A DNA stretch of 20,000 nt, from positions 102,173 through 122,172 of the forward strand of contig JBNGIO010005880.1 in assembly GCA_049999805.1 (NCBI GenBank), read 5' to 3'. Below, piece after piece: positions 1 to 18,472 of this stretch. Below the pieces are notes generated by a model. That model was given only the letters and a program-made list of their open reading frames with translations. It made no database searches and was not told where the DNA came from. How positions within the stretch are numbered: the stretch's first letter is position 1; every line of letters starts with the position of its first letter. Position numbers and translations under genes: made by a program. This DNA is from Folioceros fuciformis. Taxonomy: Eukaryota.

Positions 1-277
1 GTCGGGGTTAGGAAGAGTCCATCAAGGCTCAAACTCTTTCGTTGCAAATTGAATAATGCAGCATATCCTCAACGTCTTCCCTCTTTAGCATGTCACATCT
101 TTGATGATATAAAGCAATGCCATTTGCGTGGGCTCAGTCAAAAGCTGGCAGAAACGCATGCTCTAAACGACGCGGTCTCCCTATAAATTCAGGTCCGCCG
201 GTTTGCAGGTTTCGAGAGTGTCATCGTGGACTTTCATGTCGAGGAATGACAATAGGAAAGCAATTCGGCCCTTCAAA

Positions 278-1312: not shown

Positions 1313-4300
1313 ATGCCTGTGCCGAGGTTGACAGGCATTCTAGGAAGATCTCCCGCTCGGTCAAGGTATCAATTGTTGGCATTCAACCAAGCCGCCAGGT
1401 CTGCAAAAATCCCAGCCCTTCCAAGCGGATGTCTGGCTGGAGACGGACTTTCCACCTGGCCGGGCTATCTTGAGCCTCACAAGACCTCAGGCTACGAAAG
1501 TGTCGTCACGGCTGAAGCTGTGCGCGAGCTATGTCATGAAGGCCAGTTCATTGAGGCTGTTGAATTATTGGGAATTTTGGTGCAGACAGACTGTTGTGTT
1601 TCGAGATCTCTGTTCTACACTATCCTGAAAAGATGTGTGGAAACTAAGGATCTCGTGGTGGGTCGCCGTATTCATGCTTTAGCGGTATACAATGGATATC
1701 AAACGGACACGTTCCTCTGCAACCACGTATTGAGGATGTATGCTTCTCATGGCAGACTGGGAGATGCGATGGATGTGTTCACCATGGTTTCCGAACCCGA
1801 TTCTTACATGTGGTCCTCCATCATTTCTGCGAATGTAAAACATGGAGAAGCCAGACAGGTCACACAATTGTACAATCGGATGCGCAGGTCGAGTGTAAGG
1901 CCGGATGGGCATGTATTTGTGGCAGCCCTCCAGGCTTGTGCAAGGGGAGCAGACCTGAGAACTGGGAAGCAGGTGCATGCTGATTTGCTGGCCAGTGGGG
2001 TTGAGCCTGATTTGTTTGTCTGCAACGGGTTGGTGGACATGTATGCAAAGTGCGGTAGCTTGGAAGACGCTCAACGAGTGTTTGATGCACTCTGTGTTAA
2101 AGATGTTGTAACGTGGAGTACCATGATAGCTGGGTATTCTCAGCAAGGCATGGGAAAGGAAGCACTTGATCTGTACAGTATCATGCAAGAAGATGGCATG
2201 GCTGTGCCCAACTCGGTGACATTTGTGTGCCTCTTGCAAGCATGTGCAAGGTTGGGGACAGCCGCGTTGGACAACGGGAGGCAGCTGCATGCGCAGATCA
2301 AAGAACGAGGTCACGAAGCTGATGTCTTTGTAGCAAACAGTTTGGTCAACATGTATGCCAAGTGTGGCAGCTTAGAGGATGCCCACAGCGTGTTTGATGA
2401 ACTTGTTGGAAGAGATGTGGTGACTTGGAATGGCATGATAGCAGGGTATTCCCAACAGGGCATGGGGCAGGAAGCCCTTCATATGTACGGTGTTATGCAA
2501 GAAGAAGGCATATCTTTGCCCAATTCTGTGACATTTGTCTCTCTCTTGCAGGCCTGTGCAAGTTTGGGTACTGTAGCATTGGACAAGGGGAAGCATCTGC
2601 ATGCACAGATAAAGGAACTAGCACTTCAAGCTGATGTGGTTGTTGCAAGCAGTTTGGTGGATATGTATGGGAAGTGTGGCAGTCTAGAAGATGCTCGTGG
2701 CGTGTTTGACACCCTTGATAACAAAAATGAGGTAGTGTGGAGTGCCATGATAGCAGGATATTTGCAGCAAGGCATGGGCCAGGAAGCCCTTCGTCTTGAC
2801 ATTGATATGGAAAAGGAGGGCATTATTGCAGCCGATCCTGTGACATTAGCATCCCTTCTGCAGGCTTGTGCCATTGTGGGTGCCCCAGCTTTGGAGAAGG
2901 GGAAGCAGCTTCATGCACGGATTAGAGAACAAGGACTTGAGGCTAGTAACTCGTTAGCAAACAATTTGATCAACATGTATGCAAAGTGTGGCAGTCTAGA
3001 GGATGCTCAGAGCGTGTTTCAGGAACTTGGTGAAAAAGATGTGTTCACGTGGACTGCTCTAATTGCAGGATATTCCCAGCAGGGCATGGGGCGGGAAGCC
3101 CTCCGTCTCTACAGTCGTATGCAACAGGCCAGCAACATTACCCCTGATCATGTGACATTTGTTTGCCTCCTGCAGGCCTGCGCAAATGTGGGCACCCCAG
3201 CTTTGGAGAAGGGAAAGGAGCTTCATGCACAAATTAGCCAACGAGGACATCAGGCAGTTGTGGTTATGGCCGACTGTTTGATAGACATGTACACGAAGTG
3301 TGGGAGCCTAGGGGATGCTCAGATGCTGTTTGACGGACTTGGTGAAAGGGATGTGAAGACATGGAATGCTATGATTTCTGGATACTCCCAGCAGGGCCTG
3401 GGCCAGGAAGCCCTTCATCTCTACAATGCTATGCAAGAAGAAGGCATTGCGACACCCAGTCCCATTACTTATGTGTGCCTCCTGCAGGCGTGTGCAAGTG
3501 TTGGCAGCCCAGCTTTGGAGATGGGGAAGCAGCTGCATGTGCAAATCAGAGCACGTGGACATGAAGACGATTTGATTGTGGCAAACAGTTTGGTGAACAT
3601 GTACGCAAAGTGTGGCAGCCTAGAGCATTCGGAGCGAGTGTTTTACGGACTTGGACAGAAGGATGTTGTGACATGGACTGCGCTAATTGCAGGATATTCC
3701 CAGCAGGGCAGGGGCCTGGACGCCCTTGGGCTTTACATTTCCATGCAAGAAGATGGCATGGCTGTACCCGACTCTGTAACATTTGTGTGCCTCTTGCAGG
3801 CGTGTGCTAGTGTGGGTGCCCCAGCCTTGGAGAAAGGGAAGCAGCTTCATTTACAAGCCAGAGAACGAGGCCTTGAAGGCAATACATTTGTCGCCAACAG
3901 CTTGGTAAACATGTATGCAAAGTGTGGCAACGTGGAGTGCGCCCAGAGAGTGTTCGATGGACTCAGTCATAAGGATGTGGTGACGTGGAATGCCATGATA
4001 GCAGGGTATTCCCAGCAGGGTATGGGCCACGAAGCCCTTCAACTGTACAGTGCTATGCGAGAACAGAGCATAGGTGGACCTGATTCCTTGACATTCGTCT
4101 CCCTCCTGCAGGCATGTGCAAATGTCGCAGCCTTGCATGTAGGACGGAAGCTACATGCACAGATTGAGGAACAAGGGCTTCAGGCTGATGCGTTCATAGC
4201 AGGCAGTTTGATAAACATGTATGGGAAGTCCGGGAGCATGGTCGATGCACAGCAAGTGTTCGAGGCCCTGCCAGGCAGGGACGTTGTTGTCTGGAACGTG

Positions 4301-4936
4301 CTGTTTGCAGGGTACAGCAGCCAAGGAGACAGTGAAAAAGTCTTCGATTTGGTTCTCCGAATGTCAGAGGACGGAATACAGCCGAACGGCATCACCTTTC
4401 TCAGTATACTCGCAGCATGCAGCCATGCAGGTCTTGTGGACAAAGGGCAGGACTACTTCGAGCACATGAGAACAAAACACGGCATTACCCCAACTCTACA
4501 ACACTACACCTGCATGGTGGACCTTCTGGGCCGTGCAGGCCAACTGCACCAGGCTCTAGCATTGGTAAGCACGATGCCCACACTCCCAAGTTCCTCAATC
4601 TGGCACACTCTCCTGGCTGCCTGTCGAAAATGGAGCAACTTAGAGGTCGGTCAGCATGCCTTCGCCGAAGCAATCAAGCTAGACCAGAATGACGCAGCAG
4701 CATACACGCTGATGTCGACCATATACTGTACTGCCCAGATGTGGAAACAGGCCCAGGACATGCAGTCCAGGAGAATCCAAATCAGGGCATGGAAGCAGCC
4801 CGGCCAGAGCTGGTGGACAGACATGGCTGGACTGGTGCACAGTTTTCTGGTTGGAAATGAAAAACATCCCACGAGAAGAGCATTGTTGCTGCCCGGATGT
4901 GAGGAACAAGATGCTCCACATGCAGTCACGGAATAG
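1313..4936 (+). CDS. PLS-class pentatricopeptide repeat protein (L-S-[P-L-S]x8-P2-L2-S2-E1-E2 plus WW-type PG box), organellar RNA editing factor lacking an intact DYW domain; ~1207 aa
   Basis: Single 3.6-kb ORF. It has repeated motifs VVTWNAMIAGYSQQG (P), TFVCLLQACA (L) and NSLVNMYAKCGSLEDA (S). The end has L2 ITFLSILAACSHAGLVDKG, S2 HYTCMVDLLGRAG, E1 IWHTLLAACRKW, E2 AAAYTLMSTIY and PG box KQPGQSWWTD...VHSFLVG..HP. The first in-frame ATG is 1313 (the track's 1247 start is a TTG). It opens an R/S/L/A-rich, acid-poor N-terminus typical of an organellar transit peptide. Confidence 0.95.
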   Translation: MPVPRLTGILGRSPARSRYQLLAFNQAARSAKIPALPSGCLAGDGLSTWPGYLEPHKTSGYESVVTAEAVRELCHEGQFIEAVELLGILVQTDCCVSRSLFYTILKRCVETKDLVVGRRIHALAVYNGYQTDTFLCNHVLRMYASHGRLGDAMDVFTMVSEPDSYMWSSIISANVKHGEARQVTQLYNRMRRSSVRPDGHVFVAALQACARGADLRTGKQVHADLLASGVEPDLFVCNGLVDMYAKCGSLEDAQRVFDALCVKDVVTWSTMIAGYSQQGMGKEALDLYSIMQEDGMAVPNSVTFVCLLQACARLGTAALDNGRQLHAQIKERGHEADVFVANSLVNMYAKCGSLEDAHSVFDELVGRDVVTWNGMIAGYSQQGMGQEALHMYGVMQEEGISLPNSVTFVSLLQACASLGTVALDKGKHLHAQIKELALQADVVVASSLVDMYGKCGSLEDARGVFDTLDNKNEVVWSAMIAGYLQQGMGQEALRLDIDMEKEGIIAADPVTLASLLQACAIVGAPALEKGKQLHARIREQGLEASNSLANNLINMYAKCGSLEDAQSVFQELGEKDVFTWTALIAGYSQQGMGREALRLYSRMQQASNITPDHVTFVCLLQACANVGTPALEKGKELHAQISQRGHQAVVVMADCLIDMYTKCGSLGDAQMLFDGLGERDVKTWNAMISGYSQQGLGQEALHLYNAMQEEGIATPSPITYVCLLQACASVGSPALEMGKQLHVQIRARGHEDDLIVANSLVNMYAKCGSLEHSERVFYGLGQKDVVTWTALIAGYSQQGRGLDALGLYISMQEDGMAVPDSVTFVCLLQACASVGAPALEKGKQLHLQARERGLEGNTFVANSLVNMYAKCGNVECAQRVFDGLSHKDVVTWNAMIAGYSQQGMGHEALQLYSAMREQSIGGPDSLTFVSLLQACANVAALHVGRKLHAQIEEQGLQADAFIAGSLINMYGKSGSMVDAQQVFEALPGRDVVVWNVLFAGYSSQGDSEKVFDLVLRMSEDGIQPNGITFLSILAACSHAGLVDKGQDYFEHMRTKHGITPTLQHYTCMVDLLGRAGQLHQALALVSTMPTLPSSSIWHTLLAACRKWSNLEVGQHAFAEAIKLDQNDAAAYTLMSTIYCTAQMWKQAQDMQSRRIQIRAWKQPGQSWWTDMAGLVHSFLVGNEKHPTRRALLLPGCEEQDAPHAVTE
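2039..4216 (+). repeat. 312-bp internal tandem repeat (S-P-L triplets of 104 aa) within the PPR CDS
   Basis: The 'atgta..' (MY[A/G/T]K) anchor occurs at 2039, 2351, 2663, 2975, 3287, 3599 and 3911, exactly 312 nt apart, then at 4217 (306 nt). Confidence 0.95.
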
Positions 4937-5076
4937 ATGCTCCTCATGCAGTCAGGCAGTAGGTGCTCCCTCCACATGCAGTCACGTCACTAGATGCTCC
5001 ACATCTTTGTCATGAAAGAAACAACTACCATTTGCGTGAGCAAAGCAACACGCTGGCCACCGCATGGTCTGCCTAA
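4865..5076 (+). pseudogene. Probable decayed remnant of the E+/DYW deaminase domain of the PPR gene
   Basis: After PG box...HP, 'atg t gag gaa caa gat gct cca cat' (EEQDAPH) resembles MKEEGYVP. In another frame, 5032-5064 reads LREQSNTLATA, resembling LC.HSEKLAIA. I found no intact HxE, CxxC or terminal DYW. Confidence 0.5.
4909..5004. repeat. ~26-31-bp tandem microrepeat (agatgctccacatgcagtcacg), ~3.5 copies, containing the PPR stop codon
   Basis: Copies start at 4909, 4935, 4961 and 4992 (partial). The TAG at 4934-4936 lies at the junction of copies 1 and 2. Confidence 0.9.
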
Positions 5077-5504
5077 AAACCGCCCATGAATGATGACTAC
5101 AGTCCCTCCTTTGAGGCAGCTTGTCAGGCCAATTGGACACTCCGAGTAGCTAGTCTCACTTGGCACGTAGCTCCGTTCTTGAGTACCAAGTTCCACACCG
5201 GAAAACAGTAATAGGCTATGACTCGATTCGATATCATAAATTAACTACAAAAGAATTTCTATACACCAGCTTGGTCTATATTTGTCTACGACACCTGCTG
5301 TACTTCAACAACGTAAGTACCGTGTATATTGCAGATGTGGGGCAAGTTCCAGCGAGTGAACTCGCATGGAGGGAATGGTGAGCGGATTTGATCGTTGACC
5401 GCGTTGTATGAATCTTGCACGTCCCTTCATTGTTGCGCTGCTGGGGTGTGGACCCTTGAAATAATCCTGAAGACCTTGTGTGGAGCTGTCGGGTTTGGCG
5501 CATT

Positions 5505-6324
5505 ATGTCTCCGGTCGTGGGGCAGGGGAAGCATGGGGATCCTCTGAGCTCCTTTTTTGTGAGTGGTCCAATTATCAATGCGGGGCATGCGCAAGGAGCG
5601 GAAACAGCAGAGAGCAGGACTGAGCATCAGGGAGGTCCCCGCGCTGGCGCTTTTACTCTCAACAGGAACAATATTGGGTTCCAGGTGAGGCAGGTGTTGC
5701 TGATTTCAGGGTTTCAGGGGACCGCAGAGGGCTTGAGACTTGTCTGTAAGGAGCCTGACTCGTGTGGAGAGGTTGTAACCATGGGATGAATTGTCGGGTG
5801 ATTGGCAGCTTCTGAGGAAGTCAGGGTGGAAGGAGGGCTCGGGCCTTGGAGCAGCGGAGCAGGTTAGGGTTTTTCGTTGTGAAGAGTGTTGGGTCTGGTG
5901 TGACCTATGTTTCAGAATTTTTGAAGGGGCTGAATGGAGTGTTGGTTCTTTCTGCAGGGAATTGTTGCTCCGGTGGAGCCTCGAATCAAAACTGGACGGG
6001 AGGGGATAGGATCTTCGAAAGACGACACTAAGAACATTTATGTAGCGTCTACAAGACGGCCGCCGAACCTCCAGGTGAGGCTGTCGTTGCCCGGAGTACA
6101 ACTGGTGAGTGGCCGTGGCTTGTCATTTCTGTAAAGCCTTCGGTTCTTGTTCTGACCTCGAGATGATTGGTCCTCAGAGCCTGAAGAAGGAGAAGGAGAA
6201 GCAGCAGAAGCGGTCGAAACGGTCGAGGAAGAGAGCAAGAGAAAGTCTGGAAGAGGAGATGCGCATGAGGGCGGTGCAACAAGAAATTGATTTCCGAAGG
6301 GAATTCTGGCCTGACAACGTCTGA
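5505..6324 (+). CDS. Small G-patch (D111/G-patch) domain protein, 4 exons: 5505-5684, 5809-5862, 5958-6074, 6178-6324; ~165 aa
   Basis: Splicing three GT-AG phase-0 introns (124, 95 and 103 nt) rebuilds a complete G-patch: LNRNNIGFQ|LLRKSGWKEGSGLGAAEQ|GIVAPVEPRIKTGREGIG. A basic, charged coiled-coil-like tail follows and ends FRREFWPDNV*. I recall this tail from plant 'G patch domain and ankyrin repeat-containing protein 1 homolog'-type proteins (not verified). The start ATG is the least certain part. Confidence 0.88.
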
Positions 6325-7667
6325 TGAATCAAGGGGTCCCGACTCGCCTCAAAATCTATACGGATCTCTATCTGCTGTAAGCAACTGTTCTAGAACTAGC
6401 TGTCACCTCGATTTGTAACCATTTAACTGCTTGCCATGTTGCTGACTACGAGTTTATGCACAGGTGAGAGGATTCGCATACCGTGTTTATCTAAGTGACT
6501 GCCTTAGTCTGACAAGAACACCCGTGTCACGGTCGTCGGCGAATGTGGGTAGACTCTTGCATGGCCTTTCGCTTTCTTTCACTAGTCGGCTCAGTTTGCT
6601 CGACAATTTCCTCTCTGGGGTATTAATTTGAGTTCGTTGGTAAATCAGGTCCATACGAGATTCTAGGGACGGTGATTGAGGCAAAAGCATTTAGTTGGTG
6701 GGTTTGAAGGGAGTACCTTACGGCTACAAGTCCTCTGAGAGAACTTCCAGGTGGAGTTCCCCGCGAAGTGCCGCAAAGTGAGGCGGCAATAGTAGTAAGA
6801 GTCCAAAAAAGTTTAAATAAAAAGAAAGCCCGTCCTCCGACTGGGATCCGGTGGCCTAATCAAGGTAAAGCAGGATCTCCATCAAAGTGCCGTCGAATGC
6901 GGCGCAAGCTCAGGTTCAGTGACAACTGAGTACAGCATATGCTACCTGGAGAGTAACATAGGCGGCTCTCGAACGCGAACCAATGATTATCCCGTTTCCA
7001 AGTTACTGTTGGCGGCACCTGGCAGTTCAGAGGCCCCTGACTAGCGAACGCTGAGTGGACAGCACCATCCTGTTCCGCAGAAGCAGTCTTTTATGTACAT
7101 GTGTGGGTGGACAGCACTCATTCCAATGCTCGTGCCTTTGTAACTCGGGAACTGTCAACACTGGGTGTGTTTCTTTGTCCACCTCCTAGTGATGAGCATA
7201 ACTTGCAGCTGTCATCATTTCCACGGTTAGAAACCTAAGCTGGGATCCACTGGAAACACAACTTGGGGATCGAGATCAAGCAACTTGTGACCAAGATTCG
7301 AATGTACCCAATATGGATTGCACGTGGCCAAACAAATTGCAACTTGTATTGCTCTAAGGAGAAGACGGAGGCTCACCAGAAGATAGATTGTAAGCAAGCT
7401 AGGTTGTGTGATGCTTAAGCTCCTTAGAAGGTACATAATGTTTTGTGCAGGACAGTTGGATGCAATTTTGGTCATAGATGTGGTGTTGCCGCCAAGAATG
7501 AAACCAAGGAGGAAGGGTAGTGTGCTCCAATATCCCATGGTCCTTACAACTGAAGAGTACAAGGAGGCTTAAAAGGTGAGGAAAAAAATGGGCCACAACT
7601 GAAAGAGACAGCTTTAGAACTTGAGAGGTAAGATAGCTTTGACCATTTGGTACAGAAAAAGAAGAAG

Positions 7668-7753
7668 AAGATGAGGATTGAGGTTGTGATTCAAAAGGTG
7701 GAGGAGACTAAAGATGAGGATTGAGGTTGTGATTCAAAAGGTGGAGGAGACTA
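7668..7753. repeat. Perfect 43-bp tandem duplication
   Basis: aagatgaggattgaggttgtgattcaaaaggtggaggagacta at 7668-7710 and 7711-7753. Confidence 0.95.
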
Positions 7754-7842
7754 AGGGCACAACAACAAGGGCACCAAGAAATGATGACAAGAATGCAAGT
7801 ATAAAGAGAAGCAAGGAATGATGGCAAGGGTTGCAAAAGAGG

Positions 7843-7930
7843 TAGTTAAAACAAGTAAGTAATGTTATCAATCATCAAGCAGTCCTAGTTAAAACAAGTA
7901 AGTAGTGTTATCAATCATCAAGCAGTCCTA
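7843..7930. repeat. 43-bp tandem duplication (1 mismatch)
   Basis: tagttaaaacaagtaagta[a/g]tgttatcaatcatcaagcagtcc at 7843-7885 and 7886-7928. Confidence 0.95.
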
Positions 7931-8957
7931 ATTGAAGCTACTGCTTCACAAATGCAAGCATGTGAAGATTTTGGAAGTGTTTTGCCATGCTTTCTTATTT
8001 TACTATAGTAGGAGGGTAATTTGTTAGCAACTTCAATGCTTTGGTTTCTACTATGTATACCCTTTGCTATGTTCAAGCCCCAAGTCTAACTCCTTGATTT
8101 GTGGAATTGATTTTTCACTTTGCTAATTATCTTGTTCCACGTATGCGGAATTGTTGATTTCCAAGCATCTTGACTATGTTCCCTATGACTGCTAGTTTGT
8201 TGTCCTAAGCACCAGCTGGTCCATGTGCCAGCCGTCTTGCAAATGGAGCCCAAATGATTCTTCAAAAGATTAAAAAATATTTTACTTGTAATTAAATACA
8301 ATATAAAATATTCTGATATATCTGTGCGGAAGGTCTCATGACTTCCAGGTGGTGGCGTGACGCGAGTGAGTGATATATCTGACGCCCACGACTCAGAGCC
8401 TTTTATGCTCTTCACCTACCGACACCAGGTATTAATCGGACGCTGACCTCCTTATGTCATTTAAGGGTTGATGGGCGTGATAAAAGGGGTAGACGTCCAA
8501 TTCTTGCCGTGGTGGTAGTTTCGCTTTGCCCTTTTGAGTGCGATATGAAGCCCCTCTGTGGAACGGACTGGACGATGGTGAAAATGGCGGTAGAAACGAG
8601 AATTCGGCCGGCGTCACAAGTTCACGGAACGGGAAAACGATTCCACGGTACAATCTTGCTGGCCGGGCGGGGCAGGTGACTTGCGGGGTTGCCCCTTCTT
8701 GACAGCCCGACCTGGCCTGGCCTGTCGTGGCCTGGCCGGGCCAGCCCCGGCTTGATGCTGAGGCTGCCTTGGTACTTCCAGGCGGAGGCGGAGAAGAGAA
8801 GCCTCGGCGCTCCTGCCTGCGGCGCCGAGCTGGCTTGGGGGCTGGCTGCAGGCGATGCCAGGCCGCTTTGGCTGCACTGGTGGCTGCCGCGGACTGCACT
8901 TTTGGCGCCATCCTCGATCTTCTTGGCCGTCGTTTCGCGGATGGAGAGTGGCTTGCC

Positions 8958-9003
8958 GGTGAGGTGAGGTGAGGTGAGGCGAGGCGAGGGGAGGGGAGGT
9001 GAG
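8958..9003. repeat. (GAGGT/GAGGC/GAGGG)n pentanucleotide microsatellite in a GC-rich region upstream of the GT92 gene
   Basis: ggtgaggtgaggtgaggtgaggcgaggcgaggggaggggaggtgag, read directly. Confidence 0.85.
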
Positions 9004-9295
9004 TTGAGAGTTTTGCGCCATTGCGGAGCTGTAGCGGCTGGAGCTCGAGGCTCGTGTAGGGATAATTCTCTAGTTGGGGGGAGAGTCTGGCGGTGAGGAA
9101 TAAGAATCCGTGGATGCTGTAGGCAGTAGAACGTTTGGGAGCTGGCGGCGGCGAGAGTGCAAGGTTTGTGTGGAGTGGGAAGTTTCGTTTCACAGGTGTG
9201 AATTGCGCCCAATCCGCAAGATTGCTTCGGCTTTATGTGTTCGAGCGGATTGGAAGATTTGCCGCTCGGGCTGGTGTGGTTGGATTTGAGGCTTC

Positions 9296-11447
9296 ATGGG
9301 GGAGCCTGGTCTGAAGGACAGGTATAGTCNNNNNNNNNNNNNNNNNNNNNNNNNNNNNNNNNNNNNNNNNNNNNNNNNNNNNNNNNNNNNNNNNNNNNNN
9401 NNNNNNNNNNNNNNNNNNNNNNNNNNNNNCAGGTATAGTCATCGGGTCAAGGTGGATTCGGGGGTGGAGGTGGAGGATTTGGTAGAGCATCAGGGAATTG
9501 GAGTGGAGCAGCGCAAGAGAAAATTCCGAAATGTTTGCACGGCTTTCGTGTTCGCGTGCGTCGTGGCTGCGCTTTTGACAGCGAGGAGCTGGCAGGCATC
9601 TGGAGGTGCGTGTCTGATGTATCTCATGTTGTCCTGTGTGCAAAGCGGCATCGTTCCTTTCGGCCTGGGATTGAGGACACAATTTGTTTCGTGCTGTAGG
9701 CTCGGCGTATCCTCTCGCGATAAGCAGGGATCGGCTTGGAGAGAGGCTTCATATCACTCAGGACAACGACCTTGGACTTCCGCTAGATGAGGCAAGTCGC
9801 GACCCGGTAATTGAAAATGTGGTCGCGCTTCCCAACAAAGGTTTACTGCTGCTGCTCAGTTTGCCATACAGATTTCACCTCCCCCGAAAAGAACGACTCT
9901 CTTGCCGTTTCGGGAACCAGACCTTCACGGATGTCTTGAGCGCGGAGGTGTACAAGTCAAGGGGTGGTGTTGTTAGGTGTCCGTATCCGAGTGCGGGATC
10001 CGTGTGGACGGCTAGGAATGTGACGGTGGTGGTCGGCAATGGCCTCGCTTATTATCCAGCGAAATTGGCGTACAGGCAGCCACTGACATGGAACTTTCTT
10101 GTGTATGATATTTGGCCCACTCAAGTAGATGTCGTTCTGTTTGCGAAAGGCCTTAAACGTATCAGGGACAGTGAAGGCTTGCTGACCGTACAGTGCATTT
10201 ATGATAGAAAGGTCCATGTACCGGTCACAGACGCCGCCCAGGAGGTATTCAGGTGTCCACATCCAGATGCCTCCGAAAGAGAGGAACTTTTGGGTCAACC
10301 TGTGACACTCATGGTGAATGGCGTGCTTGTGCCGTCAGTCGTCAGGTATGAGTGTGATAACAATGTGCTCAAGCACGGTACTAAATCCCGGCACTCGGGG
10401 TCAGGCGTTGTGTCCCATGGCAACGACGAGTACGCCTCCCTTGCTGCAGCGGGGTGTCAAGATTATGTGCGAGGTGGTGCAGTATCGAGGGCTTTGCATA
10501 CTACAGAGAAGCACTTCCTCTGCTCCTGCAACCTCATTAGAGACGGAGCCAAGTTTCTCGAGGAGTGGGTTACGTACCACTCGCATCTGGGGGTAAGCAA
10601 GTTTTTCTTCTACGACAACAACAGTGACGATGAGATTGAGGACGTTATTGCAGGGTTGGTCTCAAGCAATTATCAAGTAACGAGAGTCATTTGGCCCTGG
10701 ATCAAAAACCAAGAAGCTGGATTTGGGCACTGTGCTCTTCTGGCAGCGCAGGAATGCACTTGGATGATGTATGCCGACGTGGACGAATTCGCTTTTCCCA
10801 AAATGTGGCTCAACTTATCTTCTCCTACATCCATCAGTGGAATGCATGAAGACAGCTGTTCGGAATCTAATGTCGGTCCTCGTGAGGGCAGCAGAAAAAA
10901 ACAGGAGGGACCTCTAATATCCCTCATCCAAGAGGCTGCTCCATATGGCAAGGGCTTGGAAAAGGTCGGACAAGTGTCGCTTTACTGCCGAGACTTTGGT
11001 CCATCGGGTCTGATGGCTCATCCTGTTCAGGGTGTAACAGTGGGGTACTCTTGCAGACTCAATGCTTCCCCTAGGCACAAATCCATCGTGCTCTTGGAGG
11101 CTATCGACAAATCACTGAGAAATGTGATCCACCATTTCGATTTGGGTTCTGGGTATCGCACTGTCAAATTGCTTACAAACAAAGCAGTGTTCAATCACTA
11201 CAAGTTCCAAGCATGGGATGAGTTCAAGTCGAAGTACAAGCAACGGGTGTCAGCTTATGTTCCAGATTGGACCGATTCCAAATCTTCTAATTCCCAAGAC
11301 AAAGTGTCTTTGCTTGGCAAAACAGCAGTGAGGCCTGATGATTGGGAAACGCAGTTCTGTGAAGTGGAAGACACTGCATTAAGAGACTATGTTCTGAAAG
11401 TATTTGTAGTTTGCAATGAGCCAGAGTCAAAAATGATTTGGCAATGA
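9296..11447 (+). CDS. Glycosyltransferase family 92 (DUF23) protein, type II membrane; exons 9296-9605 and 9700-11447
   Basis: Exon 1 encodes a basic patch and TM anchor (KRKFRNVCTAFVFACVVAALLTA). The GT-AG intron 9606-9699 (94 nt, phase 1) joins in frame to the 587-aa ORF. GT92 motifs present: AQEVFRCPHP, AKFLEEWVTYHSHLGVSKFFFYDNNSDD, WPWIKNQEAGFGHCA, DxD motif WMMYADVDEF, RHKSIV, NVIHHF and NHYKFQAWDEFK. The protein is ~648 aa if the N gap is collapsed. Confidence 0.92.
9330..9429. other. Assembly gap (100 N) flanked by an exact 11-bp direct repeat caggtatagtc
   Basis: caggtatagtc at 9319-9329 and 9430-9440. Confidence 0.97.
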
Positions 11448-15980: not shown

Positions 15981-18430
15981 TTACCTCATGCCCATGAGTG
16001 TCCGAGCTTGTGCGAATTGCTCCGTAGAGAGCCTCTTGGTAAGAATATCTGTAGGGTTCTAACTGGTGTGAACTTTGACAAGTTGTACCCTCTTGTCTTC
16101 CAACACCTTTCGGATGAAGTGATACTTCACTTCCACATGTTTGGTCTTCGCATGAAACACTGGATTCTTCGCCGATTGGATAGCATTATGGTTATCACAA
16201 TGCAACACTGGCAGCTCAACCTTAATCCCCAAGTCTCCCACTAAACGAGCAAGCCACATGGCTTCCTTGCAATCCTCAGTCGCTGCAACATACTCGGCCT
16301 CTGTGGTAGATAGCGTTATGCACAATTGCAAACGAGATCGCCATGAGATTGCCTCTCTAGTGCACATGAAGACATAACCTGATTATGGACCTCCTTTTGT
16401 CCATATCCCCTGCATAATCAGCATCCGTATATCCAACGACAGATGCATCTTCACTACCAAAACATATGCACAAAGATTTTATACCATTTAAATACATCAT
16501 AACTCCTTTTACTGCCTCCCAATGCTTCTTGCCAGGGTTTGACATAAACTTGCTAACCACTCCCACTGCAAAAGCAATGTTAGGACGTGTAGCAATCATT
16601 GCATACATCAAACTCCCTATAGCTAATGAGTATGGAACCTTTTCCATTTCAGCTTTGTCCTCCGCAGAGCTCGGGCAATCCTTGCTCGAAAGTTTCACAT
16701 ATGGAGGCAACGGAGTACTCAATACCTTCCCTTTCTCCATGTTGAAACGTTGAAGCACCCTGTTAATGTACTCAGTCTGAGACAAGTAAAGCAAATGTCT
16801 ATGTCTGTCTCGACGAATACGCATGCTAAGAATATGGTTGGCCTCTCCTATGTCTGTCATATCAAAGCAAGCATTCAACTTTGACTTCAATGCTGAAATC
16901 TCATCACTGCTATTCCTAGCAATTAGCATATCATCCACATAAAGGATCAAAATGAGCAAGCTTCCATCCTTAGCTTGCTTGTAGGCAATGATCCTCATCG
17001 CTACGTTTGTAGCCTTGAGAAAGCATAAATGAGTGGAACTTGTAAATACCACTCTTTGGGTGCCTATTTCAAACCATAAAGGCTCTTCTTTAACCTGCAC
17101 ACCATATTCTCTTTGCCCTTCCCACTGAAACCCTCTGGTTGCTGCATGTATACCTCTTCTTGGAGATCACCATGTAGAAATACCAACTTCACATCCATCT
17201 GGACAAGTTCCATGTCATTCCTCGCAACCAGAGCAAGAACACATCGCAAAGTGGTCATTTTGACAATTGATGAGAAAATCTCATCAAAGTCAATACCTTG
17301 CTATTGCTTAAAACCCTTAGCAACCAATTGTGCCTCATACTTGGGTTTGCCATCATGGGGTATGACCTTCATCTTATCCACCCATTTGCATGGCAATGCC
17401 TTCTTACTCCTAGGCAACTGAACCAACTCCCAAGTTTGGTTTTTATGGAGCGGATCCATTTGCGACTGCATCGCCTTCTCCCACTGTCCTTGTCAATCAC
17501 TAACATGGCCTCTTTGTAACAAGAGGGCTCTCCACAATCCGTCAGCATAACATAATCAAGAGATGCAACATACTTGTCAGGAGGACGTGAAATCCTTCTT
17601 GACCTACGAAGCACAGGCACCTCGATCGGAGCTGGTTGCACTCTCTTCTTCTACAAGTGGAGGAACGGGTTCCTGCACATCACAACGTTCAACTTGCGCG
17701 TGACGGTCAAATCCATCTTCTTGGAAGACCACTCGTCGCACTTCCACAATTGGAGTAGGCATCTTGTGCATTTTGTTCTCATTGAAGAACGCGTCATTGC
17801 TGCGAACAACCTTCTTGGCTTCTAGATCCCATAAACGGTATCCCATCTCACTAGAGTCACCATAGCCAAGAAAAATACATTTTTTGGACTTGGATGCCAG
17901 CTTGTCCCGAAACTCCTTTGGAACATGCTAGTATGCCTCGCAGCCAAATGCTCGTAGATGCTTGTAAGACGGCTTCTTTCCAGACCACAACTCTTCTGGG
18001 AACCTATTCATCCACAGCCTTATTAGGAGATCAATTAATAAGATGCACTGCAGTAGACACTGCTTCTGCCCAAAATCCGTTAAGCAATCCAGAGTTTGAC
18101 AACAAACTACGCATCCTCTCCTAGATGGTCCTGTTCATCCGTTCAGCCACACCATTATGGGGAGGAGTATATGGGAAAGTCAATTCTCTCTTGATTCCCT
18201 TGGAATCACAGAATGATTGGAAAGCCTTTGAAACGTACTCTCCAACATTGTCTGTCCTTAGATACTTTAGTCGGAGGCTAGACTGATTCTCCACAAGGGT
18301 GACAAATTTCTGAAACACTATCAAAACATCATCCTTTTTCCTCAAAGCATAAACCCACACCTTGCATGAGAAATCATTTATGAAAGTGACAAAATAGGAT
18401 GCACGGCCTAATGATGCAGTGGGCATAGGT
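15981..18430 (-). mobile_element. Degenerate Ty1/copia LTR retrotransposon pol (integrase-RT-RNase H), 5'-truncated pseudogene
   Basis: Integrase: YFVTFINDFS..VWVY, LRTDNVGEY, PYTPPHNGVAERMNRTI, GYRLWD. RT: QMDVKLVFLHGDLQEEVYMQQPEGF, LKKSLYGLK, LYVDDMLI, IGSLMYAMIATRPNI. RNase H: GYTDADYAGD, LSTTEAEYVA, CDN..AI...KNPVFHAKTKHVEVKYHFIR, NPTDILTK, with the stop at 15981-15983. The INT-RT-RH order defines copia. There are many stops and frameshifts. Confidence 0.97.
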
Positions 18431-18438
18431 TGGGTAGG

Positions 18439-18472
18439 GTTTTGAGTTTGGGCAAGGACCCAAACTCAAAAC
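18439..18472. repeat. Perfect 14-bp inverted repeat with 6-nt loop at the copia truncation point
   Basis: gttttgagtttggg-caagga-cccaaactcaaaac. Confidence 0.9.

Follow-up and report, generated by a model that had tools for sequence, protein, structure and literature searches.

The locus raises the question of whether a WW-type pentatricopeptide repeat (PPR) editing factor is seen here at the moment of losing its DYW deaminase, as the original prediction proposed, or whether it belongs to a kind of protein that parted with the enzyme long ago. The window, meaning the whole stretch of 20,000 nucleotides of hornwort DNA analysed here, holds a gene whose sequence points to the second answer, and we put the probability at roughly 75% that it encodes an editing specificity factor of the E+ type, one of a large clade in which deaminase activity was lost long ago.

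The frame of the PPR gene is open from position 1241 and closes with the TAG codon at the end of the coding region (Table 1). Pfam matches and the 104-residue period indicate P-L-S triplets, the E motif reaches 38.4 bits with PF20431 (cut-off 27.3), the PG box reads PGQSWWTD, and an HP pair follows at 4865-4870, bearing out the order of E motifs, PG box, HP and stop that had been described. Pfam, which does give the PPR repeats and the E motif, gives no DYW domain for this gene. Of the features of a catalytic PPR-DYW protein, the PGxSWW box is there and the in-frame HxE, CxxC and terminal DYW are missing; nor is the gene of the DYW:KP type, having a PG box and grouping apart from the KP rows. 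The stop codon lies 45 residues past the PG box. Because 4799-4933 yields no Pfam match and the extension past HP is not above shuffled sequence, the protein is, on its sequence, a short E+ form, like about half its paralogs. The N-terminus looks transit-peptide-like, as judged by eye.

Table 1. Features of the PPR gene, its 3' flank and its upstream neighbour (window positions)
Feature	Position	Strand	Basis or remark
3' end of the upstream tandem neighbour (L178), a DYW-less WW gene	1..186	+	In-frame HSEKLA remnant reading LSQKLA
PLS-class PPR gene, 1207 codons from the first ATG	1313..4936	+	Reading frame and Pfam
PPR array, about 29 motifs (L, 9 x S-P-L, S2), 312-bp period	1607..4573	+	Pfam and period; motif count and limits are our own reading
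E1 and E2 motifs	4574..4798	+	PF20431; dN/dS 0.18 against 132 paralogs
WW-type PG box, last conserved unit	4799..4855	+	dN/dS 0.16, codons 8-18
Degenerate in-frame tail, possible GYVP trace (not significant)	4871..4933	+	Shuffle tests
Tandem repeat, 26 bp x 3.5	4909..5004	+	Stop TAG 4934-4936 is the junction of copies 1 and 2
Decayed DYW segment around HSEKLA	4975..5072	+	Core 5024-5072; profile of paralog remnants

Two decayed DYW motifs, GYVP and HSEKLA, had been proposed for the DNA around and behind the stop. The letters LREQSNTLATA do lie at 5032-5064, out of the frame of the PPR gene. A DNA profile was made from the remnants of 11 paralogs that had been selected for similarity to intact DYW:WW, with the window gene and its neighbour left out. 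It matches 4975-5072 at 16.8 bits (E value 2.2e-7), a score that 0 of 500 shuffles attain. The match runs codon for codon across the HSEKLAIA segment and the H and E codons line up, the former reading Q at 5041 and the latter N (QSN), so the claim that both catalytic residues are lost holds. Pairwise comparison with paralog DNA likewise stands out for 5005-5110 (best score 51 against 31.3 +/- 2.8; 0/100 shuffles) and is at background level for 5111-5300 and 5301-5500. As for proteins, 124/300 shuffles over 4873-5110 and 38/300 over 5005-5110 do as well as the real sequence when aligned, with frameshifts allowed, to 14 intact DYW:WW domains, and 605/1000 equal it against an HMM of intact DYW:WW proteins. 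When 30 intact DYW domains of the genome (KP and PG types) are made into a profile, the remnant scores -3.0 bits, which 673/1000 shuffles reach, its best match still falling on the right columns. Similarity above shuffled background is therefore found with the DNA of paralog remnants and not with DYW:WW proteins; on the terms set with the original prediction, the protein result would have told against it. We regard the HSEKLA fossil as real at the DNA level, because the remnant profile matches codon for codon with none of its 500 shuffles as good; as a protein similarity it does not exceed chance. The fossil shows that full DYW proteins were the ancestors of the clade. Its own frame ends at 5074-5076, ahead of any CxxC.

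The GYVP motif fares worse. An anchored test finds 79 of 1000 shuffles as good, pairwise comparison 13/100 for the best score and 4/100 for the mean of the top ten, and the proposed trace sits inside the tandem repeat. Nor is the spacing roughly right, as had been suggested: the H-equivalent codon lies 242 nt past the start of the PG box, compared with 198 in intact DYW:WW proteins and 168-201 in seven in-frame remnants. Since the first and last repeat copies are 83 nt apart, the repeat explains both the excess and the change of frame. In the order of events that we infer, local tandem amplification would have displaced the DYW remnant, which extends to the HSEKLA segment, from the reading frame and cut it off.

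The relatives of the gene show how common such truncation is. The coding pattern PGxSWWT has 282 matches in the 87-Mb assembly and a control has 0; the best 30 DYW loci comprise 26 of the KP type and 4 of the PG type. From 139 PG-box matches examined, removal of the window gene, two with upstream stops and one unrelated match leaves 135 paralogs, a sample of the WW family made up of the best protein matches and the first 100 pattern matches listed. A catalytic DYW occurs in 0 of the 135, so intact WW-DYW members number zero in this sampled part of the family, and a rare one is possible. The paralogs stop 18-155 residues past the start of the PG box (median 44), and truncation extends to nine out of nine other distinct WW genes, those nearest to P0001, an intact DYW:WW protein, and to eight genes with a PGQSWIE-type box. 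One regular-expression match to HxE..CxxC among the paralogs (L024), lying in a tail of 67 residues, was discarded as due to chance. A remnant is detectable in a minority, 14 of 124 non-seed tails reaching 10 bits, and several paralogs (L008, L069, L124 and the upstream neighbour L178) keep better, in-frame remnants. A C-to-R codon change is common to L178, the window gene and L190. The paralog at L008:1816-2202 carries an in-frame DYW remnant of 129 residues that passes the Pfam cut-off, without HxE and CxxC.

In a 58-row tree of the E1-E2-PG region, the window gene falls within a clade of 29/29 DYW-less genes (support 100/96), and the intact WW proteins fall outside it. The tree has 115 columns, and the inside of the clade is mostly unresolved, as in a quick tree of 173 rows. 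One match from a named hornwort groups beside the clade, in keeping with a hornwort-like genome, as is the predominance of KP-type loci. Word-index searches among proteins gave no match to the E/PG region.

Comparison with 132 colinear paralogs, at a dS of about 1.4, indicates where selection ends. The dN/dS is 0.18 for E1/E2, 0.16 for the part of the PG box left free by the search pattern (codons 8-18), and 0.92 for the remnant, the last figure coming from the window gene against seven in-frame remnants (16 codons, seven non-independent pairs). Over all pairs, the same 16 remnant codons give 0.54 and the E1/E2 motifs of the same genes 0.23. Stops are found within PG codons 1-17 in 0/135 paralogs and within codons 18-45 in 70/135, and conservation drops directly after codon 19. 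By these measures purifying selection acts on the PG box, and the remnant appears to evolve near neutrally. The PPR array, E1, E2 and a PG box of 18-19 residues are kept by purifying selection, everything downstream drifting, and the sharp selection edge at codon 18 marks out the least that a guide must retain.

These results do not sit well with a working DYW lost recently by the window gene alone, the reading implied by the original prediction, which we consider very unlikely. It can draw on the detectable remnant, a state shared with the minority of paralogs mentioned above, and on the largely unresolved inside of the clade. However, all 135 sampled relatives are without a catalytic DYW, the intact DYW:WW proteins lie outside the 100/96 clade, L008, L069 and L124 hold better remnants, and the protein similarity of the window remnant is already at background; with the 29/29 DYW-less clade and the dS of about 1.4, the gene cannot well be described as caught in the loss. 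The conservation of the PG box bears on another proposal, that the protein is now a non-editing RNA binder (a stabiliser, splicing or translation factor) with the PG box as a bystander. The changed catalytic H and E, the lack of CxxC, the long array of about 29 motifs and the degenerate gating helix would all suit such a protein, yet a dN/dS of 0.16 over PG codons 8-18 and the lack of any stop before codon 18 in the 135 paralogs do not suit a bystander. We disfavour a non-editing role and hold it to be unlikely, since conservation of the PG box equals that of the E motifs.

A duplicate that has lost its function and is becoming a pseudogene would account for the broken C-terminus and for the partial 5' duplicate just upstream, yet 1207 codons have stayed open, E1/E2 keep their dN/dS of 0.18, and no differences appear over 4234-4810 in run X3, which has a spliced contig among its sequences; we give this reading very little credit. 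The most improbable alternative is a full DYW domain hidden by assembly error or splicing. Against it, a contig of X1 (4816-7697) and one of X2 (4816-6242) match the window with 0 differences and 0 gaps, none of the four runs has a listed indel, and CxxC, HxEKL and a terminal DYW are absent from all plus-strand frames of 4873-9600. The X1 and X2 contigs are DNA of one sample, and these two runs may be the source of the assembly; there are also 105 joints beyond those listed, which leaves this alternative some room. None of the runs is recorded as RNA; X3, which we take to be RNA from contig ends that fit splice sites, has no listed piece across 5226-5341. One X3 contig spans 5342-5681 and 6649-7697, with 454 letters between; a GT donor at 5685 and an AG acceptor at 6648 agree with the ends, suggesting a spliced plus-strand RNA just downstream of the PPR gene; no DYW similarity was detected in it (5342-7697).

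An E+-like factor with a deaminase supplied in trans, which the original prediction offered as one outcome, is thus the best-supported reading of the sequence. In the available text of PMC11897456, the E+ editing factors CRR4, SLO2 and CLB19 use DYW1 or DYW2 in trans, the pocket of DYW1 being completed by the E2 motif and PG box of CRR4 and DYW2 being borrowed by E+ proteins. The unit conserved in the window gene is this CRR4-type unit of E2 and PG box. The window gene shares with these factors the P-L-S array, E1, E2, the PG box and the truncated DYW; it differs in its WW-type PG box, in HSEKLA DNA still detectable downstream and in a degenerate gating helix. This last point counts against our reading, the gating-helix part being conserved in E+ proteins (PMC11897456, available text). 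The window protein would use a deaminase in trans and, we infer, enter an organelle, serve C-to-U editing and be bound by deaminase donors. Organelle genomes, as a source of editing targets, did not turn up in the assembly, which gave no match to a plastid and, of cox1, a single fragment of 61 residues.

Like its many sister genes, the window gene has a decayed enzyme half that survives as a faint trace in the DNA, so that within a class already known it is nothing out of the ordinary. Truncated WW-type proteins have reportedly been described by Gerke et al. and by Gutmann et al., both in 2020. The intact WW-type DYW proteins (Selaginella XP_024524782.1, XP_024521485.1 and XP_024534155.1, and P0001) share the PGxSWW box and related E motifs and come out as sister or outgroup to the window gene's clade; HxE, CxxC and the terminal tripeptide are all retained in them, and all are missing from the window gene. 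The hornwort E+ expansion offers the same picture of hundreds of truncated PPR genes, many DYW:KP and few canonical DYW proteins, and we found no difference from it, the window gene being typical. Because the exclusive enrichment of the E+ subgroup in hornworts is already published, as far as the available part of PMC13386178 goes, the gene adds to a known kind; by itself it has little import, truncated E+ guides being what its clade normally contains. Background on KP proteins and the PPR expansion is given in the accessible parts of PMC9478123 and PMC7027989. The literature searched yielded no paper on WW-type PPR editing in Anthoceros and, on atypical DYW proteins or donors in hornworts, a review of splicing.

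The available text of PMC12548569 leaves open the identity of the few DYW proteins that act in trans in the C-to-U editing of hornworts. Exact-pattern searches returned three loci, C1291, C2033 and C2365 (L191, L193 and L195), with an intact HSE-CxxC-DYW core and no PG box, which we propose as candidate trans-acting deaminase donors. More tentatively, the enzyme serving the window protein might be one of these or one of five full-length PG-DYW proteins (four among 25 matches, one among 30 of 41 matches examined). The core of the three candidates matches the DYW1 chain 7w86 (E value 4e-33). They resemble DYW1 and DYW2 in having this core without a PG box; they differ in showing no PPR match in the fetched DNA (one is cut by a contig end), in an RxYPRH motif of their own ahead of the core, also seen in P0158 from another source, and, in two, in a PDF-like motif upstream. 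A complex prediction of the window S2-E1-E2-PG region with the DYW core of C2033, in which alignments were not used, scored 0.00 and speaks neither for nor against the pairing. The three PG-less genes make the identity of the trans deaminase testable in a two-plasmid assay.

In two of the three candidates, splice-site reading joins an upstream exon to the PDF-containing stretch, which we take to resemble in sequence the PDF motif of OSB proteins. The latter motif binds single-stranded DNA, according to the available text of PMC6963530. The PDF-like motif occurs in at least 148 places in the genome (e.g., L280 and L282). With assignment by contig, strand and frame length, it stands at the N-terminus of many DYW:KP frames (42 of the best 150 DYW frames, 41 besides the donor itself) and in one of 149 WW frames, among the frames listed. 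An Atlas search with the stretch gave a score of at most 0.82 and was set aside. We found no paper linking the PDF motif with DYW pentatricopeptide proteins, two key hornwort papers lying outside the literature searched. Five further genes (C689, C5784, C1036, C5989 and C6255; L284-L288) have the donors' PDF variant, and no donor-type DYW occurs in their fetched DNA, which for three runs up to contig ends.

The rest of the window holds three further elements. A partial duplicate of the 5' end of the PPR gene (1296-1668) lies at 659-1016, with 253 of 383 columns identical. Pfam places a glycosyltransferase family 92 gene at 9675-11447, and on the minus strand, at 16059-18465, broken frames resemble, by eye, the pol gene of a copia-type retrotransposon.
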